Of a stretch of 64,000 nt of DNA, positions 2,686-28,362 are shown one piece after another (the first letter of the stretch is position 1; each line of letters starts with the position of its first letter). Source of the stretch: Krischvirus LF73P4; the sequence record OZ035795.1; one strand, given 5' to 3'. The notes below the pieces were generated by a model. The model was not told the DNA's origin. It searched no databases and worked only from the letters and a program-made list of their open reading frames with translations. Position numbers and translations under genes: made by a program.

Positions 2686-4348
2686 AACCTTGCGCTATCA
2701 AAATATAATGAGCGTGGGTGCTGAACCTGTTGAGATTCAGCTAGACGGATTCAAAAAGACACTAATCACTGGTGTTAACGGTGCTGGTAAATCAACAATG
2801 ATCGAGGCGCTTTGCTTTGTGTTGTTCGGTAAACCGTTTCGTAGTATCAAGAAAGGCCAATTGATTAACAGCGTCAACAAAAAGAAACTGTTAGTCGAAG
2901 TCTGGTTTGAACTGGACGGGAAAGAGTTTTATATAAAACGTGGTCAAAAACCGGAAGTATTCGAAGTGCATCGCGACGGTCAAAAGATCGACGAGAGCGC
3001 AAGCACCAAAGACTTTCAGGAATATTTTGAAGGTATCATAGGCATGAACCTAGCCAGCTTCAAACAGATCGTTGTTTTAGGCACTGCTGGTTATGTTCCG
3101 TTTATGAGTCTTCCGGCAGCGGGTCGCCGTAAACTGGTCGAGGATTTGCTTGATATTGCTACGCTAGGCGAAATGGATAAACTGAATAAAGCGTATGTGC
3201 GCGAGATTACCCAGAATATCCAAATGCAGGAAATGAAAGCTAATCACGTTCAGCAACAAATCAACACTCATAAAAAGTACATAGAAGACGCTAGCAAGGC
3301 GAGTGCCGAGAATCTCCAGCGTTTACAGAATATGTATGATAAAGAGGTAGAATCGGCTAAAGCATTTAAAGCCGAAGAAACGCGCTTGACCGATGAGCTA
3401 TTGGCTGTTGTTATGCCGGAAGATCCTAGCGCGGTATTGGCTAAAATTAATACTGCTATCGCACAGATTGGTGCGCAGATCCAGAACTTTGACCGTGTTA
3501 TCCATATGCACGAGAAAGGCGGGATCTGTCCTACGTGCACACAACCGATCATTCAGGGTAATGATCAGACTGTACGCGAACAAAAAGCACAAGCGGAACA
3601 TAAACTGTTTCTGATTGACGAGAAACGCGTAGAATACGCCGAGAAAGCAAATTCTTTCCAGGCAGCACAAACTAAGGTCTTGGAAATTAAACGCGCTATA
3701 GAGTCACAGAGAGCGAATTTAACGGCATCTGTAGGTCGTGCTAAACAGATCCAGAAAGCAATGCAGGAATTGCAAAAAGAAAGGGTTGACAATTCCGAAG
3801 AACTTGCTAAACTGGAACACGAACTGGTAGAGATTACTAATGAAAAATCAAAGCTAGTTCTTGAAAAATATCACCGTGGATTTGTAACAGAAATGTTGAA
3901 GGATTCCGGTGTTAAGGCGTCTATCGTCAAGAAATATATTCCATATTTCAATGATCGGATTGCGTATTATCTTGATATTATGGAAGCGGATTATATCTTT
4001 ACGCTAGATGAAGAGTTTAACGAAACAATCAAATCACGGGGGCGTGAATCGTTTTCGTATACATCGTTCAGTCAAGGCGAAAAGGCACGTATTGACCTTG
4101 CGATGCTCTTTACATGGCGTGATGTTGCTGGTAAAGTATCTGGTACTAATATTTCTTTGTTGGTACTCGACGAAATTTATGATGGGGCTACGGACGTTCA
4201 GGGCGTAAAAGCACTTGATTCCATCATTGACAAGTTAGATGATAACGTGTATATTATCAGCCATCGTGACCATAACCCTGATGATTTTAGCCGTCATCTC
4301 AAGATGGTTAAACGTGGGCGATTCACTGAAATGAATGTTAACATTTGA
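2666..4348 (+). CDS. 46: recombination endonuclease subunit gp46 (Rad50/SbcC-like ATPase)
   Basis: 560 aa from ATG 2666 (GGAG upstream); Walker A GVNGAGKST; N-terminus resembles T4 gp46. Confidence 0.9.
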   Translation: MAKLNFKTLRYQNIMSVGAEPVEIQLDGFKKTLITGVNGAGKSTMIEALCFVLFGKPFRSIKKGQLINSVNKKKLLVEVWFELDGKEFYIKRGQKPEVFEVHRDGQKIDESASTKDFQEYFEGIIGMNLASFKQIVVLGTAGYVPFMSLPAAGRRKLVEDLLDIATLGEMDKLNKAYVREITQNIQMQEMKANHVQQQINTHKKYIEDASKASAENLQRLQNMYDKEVESAKAFKAEETRLTDELLAVVMPEDPSAVLAKINTAIAQIGAQIQNFDRVIHMHEKGGICPTCTQPIIQGNDQTVREQKAQAEHKLFLIDEKRVEYAEKANSFQAAQTKVLEIKRAIESQRANLTASVGRAKQIQKAMQELQKERVDNSEELAKLEHELVEITNEKSKLVLEKYHRGFVTEMLKDSGVKASIVKKYIPYFNDRIAYYLDIMEADYIFTLDEEFNETIKSRGRESFSYTSFSQGEKARIDLAMLFTWRDVAGKVSGTNISLLVLDEIYDGATDVQGVKALDSIIDKLDDNVYIISHRDHNPDDFSRHLKMVKRGRFTEMNVNI

Positions 4349-4565
4349 CAGAGTAACGCAGCCGGAGTTAGAATTGTATACCTTAATCAATCTATATTCC
4401 GGTGAAGAATATGTAGTTAGTATGGGGGACATGAAAAACAGCATATACAGCGATGCAGACATAACAAAAATGTTGTCTTGTCGTCATCATGAGTTTATGC
4501 TGGTCCCCAAATTTGATAAACTTGATTACCCTGATGCTGGGGTTGCAACAAACTTTAGAACGTGA
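4335..4565 (+). CDS. hypothetical protein (uncertain)
   Basis: 76-aa ORF overlapping gp46 stop; no strong RBS. Confidence 0.3.
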   Translation: MLTFDRVTQPELELYTLINLYSGEEYVVSMGDMKNSIYSDADITKMLSCRHHEFMLVPKFDKLDYPDAGVATNFRT

Positions 4566-4571
4566 TATACT
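4543..4571 (+). promoter_or_regulatory. promoter candidate TTGCAA-17-TATACT
   Basis: -35 at 4543-4548, -10 at 4566-4571, upstream of ATG 4596. Confidence 0.3.
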
Positions 4572-4595
4572 GATTTTATTTTGGAGATTAATATT

Positions 4596-4973
4596 ATGAC
4601 TACTTCCGCAAACCTGGCTAAAATTACTGTAGCAGACATTCAGAACAAGAAAACCAGCCTCGAATTTGACCGAGCAATGAACAAGATCCGTAAAGCGTGG
4701 GTACTGCAAATGCCGGAAAGCGAGAAAGCTAAAATGAAGGTTATCCCGCAGCAAGCACGCTTTGAACTGTACGCGCATATTGATGATATGGTGCAAAAAG
4801 AATGGATCGCTGCAATGCGCAAGTATTACGATGATTCAATTGCTAAAGGCGCTAAAACTATTCGAGGTAAAGATATTCTCGAAAAGGGTTATCAGATTGA
4901 CACTGATGAACTGCTGATTGAAGCCGCTAGCGTAGTAGTAACTCGTCTGATCGCAATTGCTGATGGGAAGTGA
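4596..4973 (+). CDS. hypothetical protein
   Basis: ORF with GGAG upstream of ATG 4596. Confidence 0.5.
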   Translation: MTTSANLAKITVADIQNKKTSLEFDRAMNKIRKAWVLQMPESEKAKMKVIPQQARFELYAHIDDMVQKEWIAAMRKYYDDSIAKGAKTIRGKDILEKGYQIDTDELLIEAASVVVTRLIAIADGK

Positions 4974-4977
4974 TAGA

Positions 4978-5355
4978 ATGAAACGTATGAGCTTAAAAGA
5001 ACAAATGCTATTCATCCTACAAAATAGTAAATTATGTCATATTCCGTTTGACTATATCAAAGATAATGATGTAATGAACTACCGTCACGGGATAGAGTGT
5101 ATTGAGTGGTATTTTGTCCTAGATAAATTTGTTGATGATGTGATTCGTCGTAAACTTGCGTTTGATGTTCGTGGTGATCTGGTATATCTCGACGGAAAAA
5201 AGACCGCAAAGAATCCTGTTACTGTCTATGCTCTGCAACAATACTTGACAGCTTACATTGGATTGAAGTATACTCACTCATCCGATAAGGAAGCCGAGAA
5301 AAAATTTATCGAAAGAATGCTAAAGATTCAAAATGAGCACGAAGTAAACCCGTAA
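4978..5355 (+). CDS. hypothetical protein (sits where T4 has rpbA, immediately upstream of gene 45)
   Basis: 125-aa ORF; position only, no motif recognised. Confidence 0.4.
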   Translation: MKRMSLKEQMLFILQNSKLCHIPFDYIKDNDVMNYRHGIECIEWYFVLDKFVDDVIRRKLAFDVRGDLVYLDGKKTAKNPVTVYALQQYLTAYIGLKYTHSSDKEAEKKFIERMLKIQNEHEVNP

Positions 5356-5385
5356 TTAATTGATTAACATGATAAAGGTGATTTG

Positions 5386-6072
5386 ATGAAACTGACTAAA
5401 GAAACCATTGCTACCCTGAAAAACTTTTCCGCTATTAACCCAGGTATCATCCTGAAAAAAGGAAACGTCCTAATCACCAAAAACATGACAAACGTTGTAT
5501 ATGGTGAAGCGACTCTGAATCAAGAACTGGAACACGAAATCGGGATCTATGATCTTAACTCTTTCCTGGGCATTCTGAATCTGGTGGGCGATGAAGCAGA
5601 TATTACGGTTGATAACCGCACCGGAAACATTCGTGTGTCTAATGATCGTCTGAAAATTAATTATCCTGGTGCTAGTGCTGCTGCTATCGTATCACCGAAA
5701 GGCCGAGTTACTCCACCTGCAAGCGATGTAGATTACGAACTGAGCAACGACGATCTGAAACAGCTTATGAAAATGAGCAATCAGCTTAAAGTGGATCGCC
5801 TTGAATTTCTACCGATTGATGGTCGTCTGATGATCAAAGGCTGGGAAGAGATTGACAAAAATAATCCTAATGAGATGTTTTGTCTTGATATGGGCGAATA
5901 TACCGGAACCGCAGACTTCCATTTCTTTATTCGTAAAGATAACATGAAACTGGTTGCTACTGACTTCGGCGATTACAAACTGAGCTTCACTCGCCGTAAG
6001 GCTGTATGGCTGGCAAGTGAAACCGTATCTTATATGATCGCGTGTGACCTTGACTCCAGCTACACCGACTAA
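5386..6072 (+). CDS. 45: sliding clamp gp45
   Basis: 228 aa, same length and clear similarity to T4 gp45 as recalled; followed by clamp loader genes. Confidence 0.9.
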   Translation: MKLTKETIATLKNFSAINPGIILKKGNVLITKNMTNVVYGEATLNQELEHEIGIYDLNSFLGILNLVGDEADITVDNRTGNIRVSNDRLKINYPGASAAAIVSPKGRVTPPASDVDYELSNDDLKQLMKMSNQLKVDRLEFLPIDGRLMIKGWEEIDKNNPNEMFCLDMGEYTGTADFHFFIRKDNMKLVATDFGDYKLSFTRRKAVWLASETVSYMIACDLDSSYTD

Positions 6073-23403: not shown

Positions 23404-23967
23404 ATGAAAAGTGCGAAATTTTGGAATACTGAAATTCAAGAGGAATTAAAACGAAGATTTGGACACACGGAAGGTGTTCTATATCACAAAACAAATAGTC
23501 CGTCTTTTAATGGTCTGCCAGAGGGATATTTCTACCAAGTCGGTGATAAAGTAAAAACAAAAAAGTTAAATTACGGTCATTTGGCAATAGATGTTTACAA
23601 TAAGGTTAAAAAGAGAACATCTACATATCTTGTACATAGAATTGTCTGGTTTCTTGAATATGGAACACAGGTTAAGGTAATAGACCACATAGACGGGAAT
23701 CCAGAAAACAACAATCCACCAAATTTACGGGAGGCAACACAACAACAAAACATGTACAATAAAAAGAAAATGGACGGGTGCACGAGCATATATAATGGTG
23801 TTACTCATCGCAAAGGATCTAGCAAAAGACCGTGGCAAGCACAAATAAGGATAAACGGATACAGAAAATACATAGGATCGTTTGCTACTCAGGAGGAAGC
23901 CGCTAGAGCATATGATGAATATGCAAAAATTCATCATGGGGAGTTTGCATCTTTAAATTTTAGTTGA
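23404..23967 (+). CDS. HNH homing endonuclease with AP2-type DNA-binding domain
   Basis: HRIVW...IDHIDGNPENN...NLR HNH motif and YRKYIGSFATQEEAARAYDEYA AP2-like segment. Confidence 0.8.
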   Translation: MKSAKFWNTEIQEELKRRFGHTEGVLYHKTNSPSFNGLPEGYFYQVGDKVKTKKLNYGHLAIDVYNKVKKRTSTYLVHRIVWFLEYGTQVKVIDHIDGNPENNNPPNLREATQQQNMYNKKKMDGCTSIYNGVTHRKGSSKRPWQAQIRINGYRKYIGSFATQEEAARAYDEYAKIHHGEFASLNFS

Positions 23968-23991
23968 CACACAAGGGAGATTCTCTATAAT
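23964..23991 (+). promoter_or_regulatory. sigma70-type promoter TTGACA-16-TATAAT with GGGAGA/TCTCCC inverted repeat
   Basis: -35 at 23964-23969, -10 at 23986-23991; T-run 24003-24011. Confidence 0.45.
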
Positions 23992-24783: not shown

Positions 24784-25041
24784 ATGAGTCGAAGTTTTGA
24801 TTTTCTGATCGCCAAGTGTCATCGAGAAAAGAAATCGATGGACCTGTTTATGAAATGTTTGAGGTATGAATATGCACACCTTCGTAAACACAAAATTGAT
24901 CCGCAAGTTTCCTACGAAAACATCAAGAAATATGCGAAAGAAGTGATTGACAACGATTGCACCGTGACATATAATGCGTTTATTGATTTATGGGCGTGGG
25001 ATGTAATCTACGCAGAGATGGACAAAGAAGATTTTAATTAA
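24784..25041 (+). CDS. hypothetical protein
   Basis: 85-aa ORF. Confidence 0.45.
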   Translation: MSRSFDFLIAKCHREKKSMDLFMKCLRYEYAHLRKHKIDPQVSYENIKKYAKEVIDNDCTVTYNAFIDLWAWDVIYAEMDKEDFN

Positions 25042-25055
25042 GTGAGGATTATATT

Positions 25056-27164
25056 ATGAAAATGCATATCGATAATGAAGAAGTATTTGGCAGTGACCTG
25101 AGCGGTGCGGTTGATTTTTCACTGAAAGCAAGTAGCAAGGCTTTTATGGTGCTTTCTAAGAACACTTATCAATATTGTGAGCGTGCTTGCGTCCGTGAGT
25201 ATTCGTGCAATGCTACCGACACTCACAAAGAAGCCGGAACCTTAGATCGTCCGTTTGATATTCATTTACCGACTGCAATCGAACCGTATTTTTCTGTGCG
25301 TGATTATGGTACGGGTATTCCGTCTAAGAAAGAATTAGAACAACTGTTTACGGTTTACTTTGAATCAACAAAAGACCAGACTAATGATTATATCGGATCT
25401 TTTGGTTTAGGTGCGAAGTCTGCTTATAGCTATACTGACACCTTTACAATCGTAAACTACTACAATGGTCGCGCTTATGGCTTTACTGCATTTGTGCAAA
25501 ACTCTATGCCGAAAATGGTGCAGATTTTCGACGAACCGACCTATGAAGACAACGGTCTGAAAATCACTATTCCGGTGAAAGAAAAAGACATTCAGACATG
25601 GCATCGAGAAGCACAATTTGTACTTCGTCATTTTGGGGAACACAAACCTAATATCAATGCAATCGAAATTAATTATTTCCCTAGCTTTGATAATTATTAT
25701 GTTTGCAATGGGCGTGATAACGATTCCTATGTAGTATATGCAATCATGGGTAAGATCCAGTATCCGATCCCGTATGAATATGTTCGCGGAACATGGTTAG
25801 AAGCTGTAAACCGCCAGCACCAGACCATTTACATTAATTTTGATTTGGGTGATCTGGACCTGATGCCATCGCGCGAAGAAGTTCACTTGTCAATCGAGAC
25901 TAAAGCGAACATCGAAAAACGTATTGCAGAAATCAATGAAATGATGTTGGAAAAGGTTAAAGAAAAGATCGCCAACATTAAAACAGAGCGTAAACTTGCG
26001 CAATTTATGAGCGAGTATTCATCGACTCAACGCAATATTATTAGCAAGATGGGTAAGATCGGGCAGTGGGATGATCCGGTAGCAATCTATAATAAGTTTG
26101 TGAATGCGGGTAAAGATTCGCCTAGTGACGTAGAAGGTCAGGTGTATACTCTGTATCGTACTCGTCACACAATCAGTAAATTGCGCCCTGCTTTCGTTAG
26201 CAGTCAATACAACATTACGCATTTTGTATGGATGCATAAAGAAGATATTCTGTGTGTAATTGATGATACCGATAAACCGAAACTGCGTGCACTGACTCTT
26301 AACGGCATGGTCCAGGAATACGGAATCAATAAAAAGGTACTGGTGTTCCGTCAGCGCAACGAAAAACATATGGAGACTTTCGAGTACATCAAACAGTATT
26401 ATGATGAATCTGAAATGACCGTGATTAAGGTATCAGAGGCCGATGATCTGCGTGCTAAAGCAGTTAAACCGGAAAAGACCGAGCGTACACAACGTGAAGC
26501 GACTCCCAAGCTGCCTAACGTGTATATCATGGAAAAGATTGGTGACAGTTGGCATAAAACCAGCCATCACATGAAAGCGGCAGAGATTCGCGAGTTATCA
26601 GGCTTGCACATGTTCCGCGTAGGTGATGCATTCGAAAGCCGTAGTCGTAAATCGATCTATAGTGAAAATACATTACACACGGCGCTTGACTACTTCGGGG
26701 TAACAAAGTATATTATTACTCGAAACGAGACACAAAAATATCTCGTTGACGAACAATTGGAATGTGCGCTAGAATTTGTTCGCGGTAAGCTGGCTGGTCT
26801 GGCTAAGAAGGTTAAGACCAATCATCTGGGGTATGGCGAATATCTGGGTGTGATCACTATGTTGTTTCATGACGATGAACTAGAACGCTGTGTTCCAGAA
26901 TTTATTGACAGACTGTACGGTCGTCATTATAATAAAGAGGTTTCCAAGTTACTCCTTCGTACTCGTTGGATTATGGACGAAGAAACTAAAAAGATCTGTG
27001 ATGAAAAATTCACGGCAGCAAACGAACGAATTAAAGCAGTTTGTGCGAAGTTTAAAGAGAATAGCCCGTTACTGTATGATATTGTAGATAACTGGTATCG
27101 TATTCTGCATAACGACAAACGCGCACAAGACTTTATGAAACTGGTTAAGAATGTTAAATTTTAA
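25056..27164 (+). CDS. rIIA: rIIA lysis-inhibition/membrane integrity protein
   Basis: 702 aa; GHKL-like boxes (REYSCNATD, RDYGTGI, GSFGLGAKSA); adjacent to rIIB. Confidence 0.8.
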   Translation: MKMHIDNEEVFGSDLSGAVDFSLKASSKAFMVLSKNTYQYCERACVREYSCNATDTHKEAGTLDRPFDIHLPTAIEPYFSVRDYGTGIPSKKELEQLFTVYFESTKDQTNDYIGSFGLGAKSAYSYTDTFTIVNYYNGRAYGFTAFVQNSMPKMVQIFDEPTYEDNGLKITIPVKEKDIQTWHREAQFVLRHFGEHKPNINAIEINYFPSFDNYYVCNGRDNDSYVVYAIMGKIQYPIPYEYVRGTWLEAVNRQHQTIYINFDLGDLDLMPSREEVHLSIETKANIEKRIAEINEMMLEKVKEKIANIKTERKLAQFMSEYSSTQRNIISKMGKIGQWDDPVAIYNKFVNAGKDSPSDVEGQVYTLYRTRHTISKLRPAFVSSQYNITHFVWMHKEDILCVIDDTDKPKLRALTLNGMVQEYGINKKVLVFRQRNEKHMETFEYIKQYYDESEMTVIKVSEADDLRAKAVKPEKTERTQREATPKLPNVYIMEKIGDSWHKTSHHMKAAEIRELSGLHMFRVGDAFESRSRKSIYSENTLHTALDYFGVTKYIITRNETQKYLVDEQLECALEFVRGKLAGLAKKVKTNHLGYGEYLGVITMLFHDDELERCVPEFIDRLYGRHYNKEVSKLLLRTRWIMDEETKKICDEKFTAANERIKAVCAKFKENSPLLYDIVDNWYRILHNDKRAQDFMKLVKNVKF

Positions 27165-27175
27165 GAGGTGATATT

Positions 27176-27307
27176 ATGACTAAACTGACCGCTATCCAGA
27201 AAGAAACCATCCGTAAACAATACGCTCGCGGCTTGACTAAAGGCGAACTGGCACGAATCTATAATGTATCAGACCGCACAATCCGCAAGGTTGTAGAAGC
27301 AAAATAA
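27176..27307 (+). CDS. small helix-turn-helix protein (43 aa), resembles an rIIB N-terminal module
   Basis: AAGAGGTGA RBS; GLTKGELARIYNVSDRTIRKVV HTH-like segment. Confidence 0.45.
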   Translation: MTKLTAIQKETIRKQYARGLTKGELARIYNVSDRTIRKVVEAK

Positions 27308-27319
27308 TTCTGGTATAAT
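27291..27319 (+). promoter_or_regulatory. promoter candidate with extended -10 (TGgTATAAT) and weak -35 TTGTAG
   Basis: -10 at 27314-27319; GGGCG/CGCCC hairpin 27330-27347 in the leader. Confidence 0.4.
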
Positions 27320-27369
27320 GATGTGAATCGGGCGGCGATAGTCGCCCAACTAATAGAGGAATGAATACT

Positions 27370-28362
27370 ATGACTAAAGCAAAAATCACCGTCTCTGACC
27401 GTAACGTTCAATGCCTGGATTCTGCGAAACAAATCAAACTGGCTAAACAGTGGGGCGAAGGTAAGTTTACTACCCGCGAAGCACTTGCGGCAGCATTTGG
27501 TGTATCTCGTCGCACTGCCTCCCGTGTATTACTGATTCAGAAAGACGCAGTAGCGGAAGGTCGCAAGGCACTAGAAAAACGTAAAGCACGCCGTAAAACC
27601 AGTAAAGGAAAAGGCGGTGAACGCGCAAAAAAGCCCGTGACTACTTCCTCAAAAATCGTAGCCATAGCCTCAACTAAGTTTATTACTATTACATGTGGTG
27701 ACATTGTTTATACTGCTGATCCATCACATGTTAACTTTAATGAAGCACTGGAAGCGATTAAACATAATGATTTCATCAAAGCTATTACGCTGATTGACAT
27801 TAAGAAAGCGGTTGAAGTATATTATCACGGCGCTTTCCGTATCGAAAATGGTATTGTGTATTATCATAATATTGTTCTTGATAATAATCTGACTCGTCGA
27901 GTTGTGGAGTCGATTAAAGAGAATAAGCCATATACGCACTATCTGAACTTCTTTGAGAAGTGCAAGAAAAACCCTAGCCGTAAGGCCGTAGATCGTCTAT
28001 TTGACTTCTTAGAGCACAACGACATTGAGATCGTGGAAGATGGTTGTTTCTATGCATGGAAACGTGTTGATGTTGATTATAAAGATTTCTTTACGCATAC
28101 GTTTGATAATAGCCCAGGTCGCACGGTTAAAATGAAGCGTAAAGACGTGGACCCAGATGATGATCGCACTTGCTCTAATGGCCTCCACGTTGCAGCGAAA
28201 CACTATATTCCGCACTATGGCGGTGGACGAGGCCGAATCATTAAATGTAAAGTTGATCCGCGTCACGTTGTAAGTATCCCGAAAGATTATGCGAATGCCA
28301 AAATGCGCTGTCATCGTTACTATGTGGTTGAAGATGTAACCGAAGGTTTTAGCCATTACTAA
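27370..28362 (+). CDS. rIIB: rIIB protein
   Basis: 330 aa from ATG 27370; conserved C-terminal core matching T4 rIIB as recalled (KAVDRLFDFL...YVVEDVTEGF). Confidence 0.85.
   Translation: MTKAKITVSDRNVQCLDSAKQIKLAKQWGEGKFTTREALAAAFGVSRRTASRVLLIQKDAVAEGRKALEKRKARRKTSKGKGGERAKKPVTTSSKIVAIASTKFITITCGDIVYTADPSHVNFNEALEAIKHNDFIKAITLIDIKKAVEVYYHGAFRIENGIVYYHNIVLDNNLTRRVVESIKENKPYTHYLNFFEKCKKNPSRKAVDRLFDFLEHNDIEIVEDGCFYAWKRVDVDYKDFFTHTFDNSPGRTVKMKRKDVDPDDDRTCSNGLHVAAKHYIPHYGGGRGRIIKCKVDPRHVVSIPKDYANAKMRCHRYYVVEDVTEGFSHY

Follow-up and report, generated by a model that had tools for sequence, protein, structure and literature searches.

For about 70 years it has been a standing question what rIIA and rIIB do. 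Iyer et al. (PMC7824862) regard RIIB as a specific transcription factor and assign RIIA to the GHKL ATPases, and RIIB triggers the bacterial gasdermin and Tmn defences (10.1101/2023.05.28.542683; 10.64898/2026.03.01.708804). In RB49 and phi1, small open reading frames (ORFs) are inserted, deleted and replaced through promoter(early) stem-loop elements (PeSLs), which carry strong sigma-70 promoters and terminators (Arbiol et al. 2010, PMC2839356), and RB49-type phages are without MotA and middle promoters (PMC1524935), so that their rIIB must rely on sigma-70-type promoters. Here we analyze a 64,000-nt stretch of Krischvirus LF73P4 (record OZ035795.1; the window is this whole stretch), in which a 43-aa ORF encoding a helix-turn-helix (HTH) protein lies between rIIA and rIIB. 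This small ORF (product MTKLTAIQKETIRKQYARGLTKGELARIYNVSDRTIRKVVEAK, stop codon at 27305–27307) begins 11 nt past rIIA, at the site occupied in other genera by rIIB, which there abuts rIIA directly, 0–1 nt after it or overlapping it, with no small ORF between. Because a free-standing HTH gene sits between rIIA and rIIB, the Krischvirus-like rII locus is one of three genes, i.e. rIIA, a small HTH gene and rIIB. An earlier reading of the letters without database searches (the sequence-only reading) gave the coordinates and peptides of both ORFs exactly, and proposed that the N-terminal module of rIIB had been duplicated and one copy split off as an independent gene.

Judged by its profile scores, the small ORF is a member of the rIIB N-terminal HTH family. 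A profile of this module (the rIIB-N profile), seeded with T4 residues 1–50 and iterated on 115 rIIB proteins that all lie outside the Krischvirus-like clade, gives 42.8 bits to the small ORF and 41.9–50.5 bits to its relatives, compared with 33.0 bits for the HTH of the window's own rIIB. A search of 1.84 billion proteins gave 149 best neighbours, and the small ORF outscores 147 of them on this profile (median 25 bits); one of the two exceptions is itself an rIIB. When the whole window is scanned in six frames with the same profile, only two matches are returned, and they are adjacent (E = 2e-12 and 7e-10). Homology of the two segments is thus established transitively and not from the direct pair, because both match the rIIB profile and the same columns (about 743–801) of PHROG 609.

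Pairwise comparisons with other phages add to this picture. The small ORF aligns with T4 rIIB (Smith–Waterman score, SW, 47; z 5.4; 0 of 2000 shuffles as high) and with the rIIB N-terminus of a ~166-kb Klebsiella phage (Jiaodavirus-like; SW 80, z 13.3, 0 of 1000 shuffles, 21 of 44 residues identical). The resemblance to the T4 rIIB N-terminus, which the sequence-only reading had pointed out, is therefore real; it is not unique to the small ORF, however, as the window's own rIIB HTH is closer to T4 (rIIB residues 1–70 vs T4 rIIB 1–90: SW 67, z 9.0, 0 of 2000 shuffles) and keeps the N-terminal cap typical of most rIIBs. The residue pattern that the same reading proposed for both window segments survives in its second half, (Y/F)-x-V-S-x-R-T-x-x-(K/R)-V, whereas the N-terminal half is off register, i.e. 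a 2-residue gap is needed and the Glu does not align.

Compared with T4-type RIIB N-terminal HTHs (PF26926 proteins; PHROG 609), the small ORF shares the tri-helical signature ...G-x-T-K-x-x-L-A-x-x-[FY]-x-V-S-x-R-T-I-x-R-V..., the position directly after rIIA, the profile score given above, and a C-terminal ...V(V/I)E(A/E)K tail like that of many rIIB HTHs. It differs from them in being unfused to an rIIB core, with a stop codon, then a spacer in another frame that holds a promoter-like motif and a stem-loop, and then a separate SD and ATG of rIIB, an order conserved in all lineages; in being without the x-V-(K/Q)-C-L cap and coexisting with a second HTH in rIIB; and in being more conserved than rIIB itself.

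The AlphaFold2 (AF2) model of the small ORF (predicted local distance difference test, pLDDT, 90.7) has helices at residues 6–18, 22–28 and 33–41, in the same order as the helices of the rIIB HTH (18–29, 36–42 and 47–56), for which the model is at about 97 (mean over rIIB, 87). Helix 3 of the small ORF, N-V-S-D-R-T-I-R-K-V-V, is invariant among lineages. The best Foldseek matches are DNA-bound HTHs of the IstA transposase, resolvase, CENP-B and NarL; that to IstA reaches a template modelling (TM) score of 0.79 with a root-mean-square deviation of 1.0 Å, and the domain is too short for the Foldseek E-values to reach significance. Among Pfam families, CENP-B_N matches at 26.0 bits against a gathering threshold of 21.2 (E = 7e-6). 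A sequence search of solved structures with the small-ORF profile, and likewise with rIIB, returned nothing significant. More broadly, the likeness of the small ORF to generic HTH families (CENP-B_N, HTH_psq, Sigma70_r4, resolvase HTH_7, and the IstA N-terminal HTH) is one of fold and class only and says nothing on the rII context.

The second HTH that the sequence-only reading placed in rIIB, with a basic linker before the core, is borne out by the profile score and by the AF2 model, in which the HTH helices are followed by a basic helix (residues 58–81) and a disordered stretch (81–93, pLDDT below 50). Weak Pfam HTH matches fall at rIIB residues 34–54, and from residue 11 onward the protein aligns with single-HTH rIIBs. 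Its MTK start, also correctly read, is the one annotated in RB49 and in phage W115; an in-frame ATG at 27361 abuts the rIIB Shine–Dalgarno sequence (SD) and is unlikely to be used as the start.

On its conservation and substitution pattern, the small ORF is a real independent gene under purifying selection, and not a frameshift artefact. Between 26900 and 28400 the window is 98–99% identical to RB49, phi1, JSE, Sf20, and 54 further Krischvirus genomes, and a tblastn search finds all 43 residues intact, at 97.7–100% identity, in 58 of 58 Krischvirus records. In addition, five divergent metagenomic lineages (contigs L008, L009, L011, L014, and L015/16) each have, in the interval from rIIA to rIIB, a 43–45-aa ORF that possesses an SD of its own, ends in a stop codon, and is followed by a spacer of 52–78 nt. 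Across those lineages the small ORF is 73–86% identical, which exceeds both neighbours (rIIB 56–65%, rIIA 38–44%), and by this measure it is the most constrained gene of the rII locus. The proportion of synonymous differences (pS 0.5–0.85) is near saturation, vs 0.05–0.24 for nonsynonymous differences (pN), and the ratio of the corresponding rates (dN/dS) is 0.02–0.33. In the window the SD is, as had been noted, a strong one, and it overlaps the rIIA stop codon (27162–27164); GAGGTG or GAGGTA is retained 5′ of the homologous ORF in L009, L011, L014, L015, and L016.

The small gene itself is already annotated, i.e. as RB49ORF272c, "hypothetical protein", in the RB49 GenBank record, as "DNA binding HTH domain protein" in phage W115, and as "HTH psq-type domain-containing protein" in UniRef, and it has its own PHROG, 15481, annotated as of unknown function. 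What appears to be undescribed is its kinship to the rIIB HTH and its PeSL-type separation from rIIB; the relation between the small ORF and rIIB is not mentioned in the PeSL papers or the T4-family genome papers searched. In a scan of IMG/VR with the small-ORF alignment, the only matches were two Krischvirus contigs and an unrelated HTH from a high-GC phage. A 32-aa metagenomic protein (P0159) matches the small ORF over its first 13 residues and then diverges, and has the look of a read-level artefact (frameshift or chimera) from the small-ORF gene.

Between the small ORF and rIIB, the spacer shows the anatomy described for PeSLs, i.e. a stop codon, a sigma-70-like promoter, a GC-rich stem-loop after or over the −10 box, and then the SD and start codon (PMC2839356; Comeau et al. 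2014, PMC4122927). The stem starts 23 nt past the small-ORF stop, and because the −35 box matches at only 3 of 6 positions (TTGTAG), the consensus promoter scan did not call the site. A promoter-like motif and a 6–9-bp GC-rich stem-loop just 5′ of the rIIB SD are present in all six lineages considered, i.e. the window and the five relatives with a complete spacer (L008 4133–4202, L009 2705–2769, L011 3449–3500, L014 1712–1789, and L016 1708–1776), and the stem sequences differ among them. Three of these relatives (L009, L014, and L016) have a perfect TTGACA, 17–18 nt, and a TAnAAT −10 box in the hairpin loop, in contrast to the poor −35 and extended −10 of the window. This putative element also differs from described PeSLs in lying within the conserved rII locus instead of a hyperplastic region, and neither of the two PeSL papers refers to the rII junction. 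There is no frame constraint across the spacer, since two Shigella phages, SSG23 and SFHK24, carry a 1-nt indel in it.

Two other roles were considered for the spacer hairpin. As an intrinsic terminator it was rejected, having no T-run, and the terminator scan gave 0 terminators; a PeSL stem-loop is the better reading. As an operator bound by the small HTH protein it is unlikely, because the stems vary in sequence while the recognition helix stays invariant. Elsewhere in the window, a second perfect TTGACA-17-TATAAT promoter lies at 24947–24975, just upstream of rIIA; a PeSL-type site at 23964–23991 has TTGACA-16-TATAAT, with the −10 box looped out by a 13-bp stem (AAGGGAGATTCTC/GGGAGTCTCCCTT); and further PeSL-like elements occur at 6050, 10805, and 24947.

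Features of the rII locus in the window, with window coordinates
Feature	Coordinates	Strand	Basis
rIIA, 702 aa	25056–27164	+	ORF list; annotated rIIA in relatives; weak GHKL ATPase matches at residues 75–140
Candidate early promoter of a transcript with the small ORF and rIIB, perfect sigma-70 consensus TTGACA-17-TATAAT	26905–26933	+	Consensus scan 12/12; within the rIIA 3′ end
Small-ORF SD, AAGAGGTGA	27163–27171	+	Sequence; 4 nt 5′ of the ATG
43-aa free-standing three-helix HTH gene (= RB49ORF272c, PHROG 15481)	27176–27307	+	Annotation, profiles, fold, dN/dS
Spacer with PeSL anatomy, 62 nt	27308–27369	+	Sequence; comparison with five relatives; PMC2839356 layout
Extended −10 of the spacer, TGgTATAAT	27311–27319		
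Stem-loop of the spacer, GGGCGGC(GATA)GTCGCCC, 7-bp stem	27330–27347		
rIIB SD, AGAGGA	27355–27360		
rIIB, 330 aa	27370–28362	+	ORF list; annotation; homologues PF26926; HTH profile; AF2 model
rIIB HTH, residues 11–54	27400–27531		rIIB-N profile
rIIB basic and disordered linker, residues 58–93	27541–27648		AF2 model
rIIB conserved core, residues 96–330	27655–28359		

Given that other genera have rIIB abutting rIIA and no small ORF, the free-standing copy is, on this comparison of gene order, a shared derived trait of the Krischvirus-like clade. The order in the window is rIIA, the 43-aa ORF, rIIB, three small ORFs, and the topoisomerase gene 52. As a side observation, rIIA and the small ORF are most similar to those of ~166-kb Klebsiella phages (Jiaodavirus-like), and the rIIB core to that of ~177-kb Slopekvirus-like phages (L004 and L005 served for the comparison). 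Such a pattern hints weakly at a mosaic rIIA/rIIB junction, the similarity margins being small and not decisive.

The number of HTH modules within rIIB also varies among relatives. Exactly one N-terminal HTH is found in 117 of 122 rIIB proteins. The most divergent Krischvirus-like contig (L008, metagenomic; 4203–5582, P0009) encodes a 459-aa rIIB with three tandem in-frame HTH modules before the core, two of which are 67% identical to each other, and it has the free-standing 43-aa ORF upstream as well. A 775-aa rIIB from the global search (P0186) has two tandem N-terminal modules, then an insertion of ~450 aa, and then the core, and the N-terminus of phiAS5-type rIIB is likewise repetitive. 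In one rIIB (P0045), an HTH was not detected and no separate HTH ORF is called upstream, and for that reason it is ruled out as a second case of fission. Across the proteins compared, the rIIB HTH module is thus, as read from its sequence, repeatedly amplified, with a copy number in rIIB of 0–3. The top whole-protein scores in the global search belong to another kind of protein, with 4–10 tandem HTHs of the small-ORF type and no rIIB core (P0126, P0128, P0132, P0138, and others); the C-terminal end of P0126 is a hydrophobic tail.

From these comparisons we infer an origin for the gene: the small ORF probably, though with considerable room for doubt, derives from the N-terminal HTH module of an rIIB gene. 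The module would once have been present twice at the rIIA/rIIB junction, either through tandem duplication (compare the in-frame copies of L008 and P0186) or as what remained after rIIB was replaced by recombination; the first copy would then have been cut off by a stop codon plus a PeSL element, and rIIB would have kept the second, more diverged HTH. Several results weigh against such an origin. Aligned directly, the small ORF and its own rIIB N-terminus are only marginally similar (SW 41, z 3.2, 14 of 2000 shuffles with at least that score, 32% identity over profile-aligned columns). Among 128 modules, the small ORF ranks its own rIIB HTH 60th (32% identity), and the best is from the rIIB of another phage (P0091, 51%). 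The small ORF starts M-T-K-L-T, without the x-V-(K/Q)-(C/I)-(L/V) cap that is typical of most rIIBs and is carried by its own rIIB (NVQCL), T4 rIIB (NIKCL), and modules 2 and 3 of L008. No intermediate, i.e. a Krischvirus-like genome whose rIIB has two HTHs in frame while the small ORF is missing, was found among the relatives. Finally, by raw similarity the HTHs of homing endonucleases come nearest to the small ORF (SW 113 and 100), ahead of every rIIB (at most 86), and in unbiased libraries generic HTH families score at least as high as the rIIB family for the small ORF.

The small ORF shows no special closeness to the HTH of its own rIIB over those from other genera; duplication within this lineage is therefore not demonstrated, and any duplication is old, unless the copy was recombined in from the rIIB of another phage. 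The proposal of duplication followed by a split therefore stands in part: the shared HTH family, the right position, the independence of the gene, and the amplification of the module elsewhere all hold, whereas the step in which one copy arises from the other in this lineage is not established. Duplication then split is, as a whole, plausible but unproven.

Instead of descending from rIIB, the small ORF could be an imported generic HTH that neighbours the rIIB HTH by coincidence, e.g. the domesticated DNA-binding domain of a homing endonuclease or a mobile ORFan-plus-PeSL cassette. We consider this possible but rather unlikely. The HTH class is widespread, and when 1.84 billion proteins are searched exhaustively by profile, the top-scoring single domains are the C-terminal HTHs of HNH_3/NUMOD4 and GIY-YIG homing endonucleases, which share a KLT-x-x-Q ... 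ELA-x-x-YNVS-x-x-TI pattern with the small ORF; one of them (P0144) reaches 48.8 bits against the small-ORF profile and SW 113, and P0162, P0220, P0228, and P0195 are further matches of this kind. Homing endonucleases typically insert between conserved genes in T4-like phages, PeSL-flanked ORFans are known to move in RB49 and phi1, and other free-standing HTHs of the same class (49–60 aa) exist in unrelated contexts, although two of these (P0253 and P0197) lie in contexts that have nothing to do with rII and are uninformative. Against the rIIB-N profile, however, the nuclease HTHs score ~28 bits, far below the small ORF and its relatives, and with a global comparison set ~10^7 times the size of the rIIB set, a closer neighbour is expected there by chance. 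The small ORF consists of an HTH alone, with no nuclease domain, no nuclease Pfam matches, and no space for a nuclease remnant in flanks of 11 nt upstream and 62 nt downstream. A PeSL is present on one side only, where insertion of a cassette would predict both, and no donor gene is present, since tblastn with the small ORF finds a single matching place per Krischvirus genome. By our estimate, a random intergenic insertion would land next to the sole other such module in 64 kb ~2% of the time. At the other extreme, the split might not be real, i.e. a sequencing or assembly error in an ordinary rIIB, or two ORFs joined by a frameshift or a gene-60-like bypass over the stem-loop; this we regard as extremely improbable. 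An octamer, AAGCAAAA, is present twice, in the final codons of the small ORF (27297–27304) and in rIIB codons 3–5 (27377–27384), a stable hairpin lies between the two copies, and a hypothetical fusion ...VVEAK-ITVSDRN... recalls the ...AEEAKRPKVTISGD... of T4. Yet the same stop, spacer, and separate rIIB SD and ATG are found in 58 independent genomes and in the five divergent lineages, which together with the low dN/dS rules out a sequencing error or a pseudogene split; rIIB proper already holds a complete HTH. Bypass is rejected because the AAGCAAAA repeat is not conserved: matched take-off and landing codons occur only in the window and, partly, in L009, being absent from L008, L011, L014, and L016, and the repeat is for the same reason probably chance in A-rich Lys codons. 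The variable length of the spacer among lineages, the indel in SSG23, the hairpin's position past the stop and not at the take-off site, and an rIIB with its own SD and ATG everywhere also speak against joining.

A further alternative concerns function only, and is compatible with derivation from rIIB: the small HTH protein may have a job unrelated to rII, as an early regulator of sigma-70-type early or PeSL promoters, or as a helper that binds the PeSL stem-loop. Matches to HTHs of the Sigma70_r4 (21 bits), Mor, and antitermination-Q type, and to a late transcriptional activator PHROG (24.7 bits), point this way, as do the fold, closest to those of transposase and resolvase HTHs, the lack of motA and middle promoters in RB49, the restriction of the small ORF to a clade with sigma-70-type PeSLs, and the suggestion of a specific stem-loop-binding protein by the authors of the PeSL work (PMC2839356). 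We judge it improbable, as these family matches all fall under or close to the curated cutoffs and are shared by tri-helical HTHs in general, and as the PeSL stems vary between lineages while the recognition helix does not.

For a protein derived from the rIIB module, we infer a different course of expression and action. The small protein may be made early, by read-through from rIIA with translational coupling and/or from the perfect consensus promoter ~240 nt ahead of the small ORF; rIIB may be transcribed from its own promoter in the spacer, with the stem-loop attenuating read-through. The small protein would bind DNA through its invariant helix 3 and would supply in trans, within the rII pathway, the canonical DNA-binding function that is fused to rIIB in other T4-like phages, complementing the more diverged HTH of rIIB itself. 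The fullest form of this proposal, i.e. that the rIIB N-terminal HTH is an autonomous unit that works in trans and has become the third and most constrained rII gene of Krischvirus-like phages, is, in our judgement, unlikely to hold in full. In T4, the first segment of the rIIB cistron, in which the N-terminal HTH lies, is reportedly dispensable for growth on K(lambda) (Crick et al. 1961; the r1589 deletion of Champe and Benzer 1962), and such dispensability would fit a separable and evolutionarily plastic module.

The arrangement is not a new kind of system, as domain duplication or fission and small phage HTH proteins are commonplace. It does extend PeSL-mediated remodelling, at the level of a candidate element, from hyperplastic regions to a conserved locus. 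It also offers an experimental handle on rIIA and rIIB, in that the HTH of rIIB is separable (0–3 copies) and that one clade carries a free-standing copy, more conserved than rIIA or rIIB, so that a 43-aa protein can be studied alone with the rIIB core untouched. If the module does work in trans, it may target phage or host DNA, or the sigma-70 and PeSL promoters of a phage without MotA, and that target would be a key to the role of RIIA and RIIB and to their interplay with RexAB, gasdermin, and Tmn.

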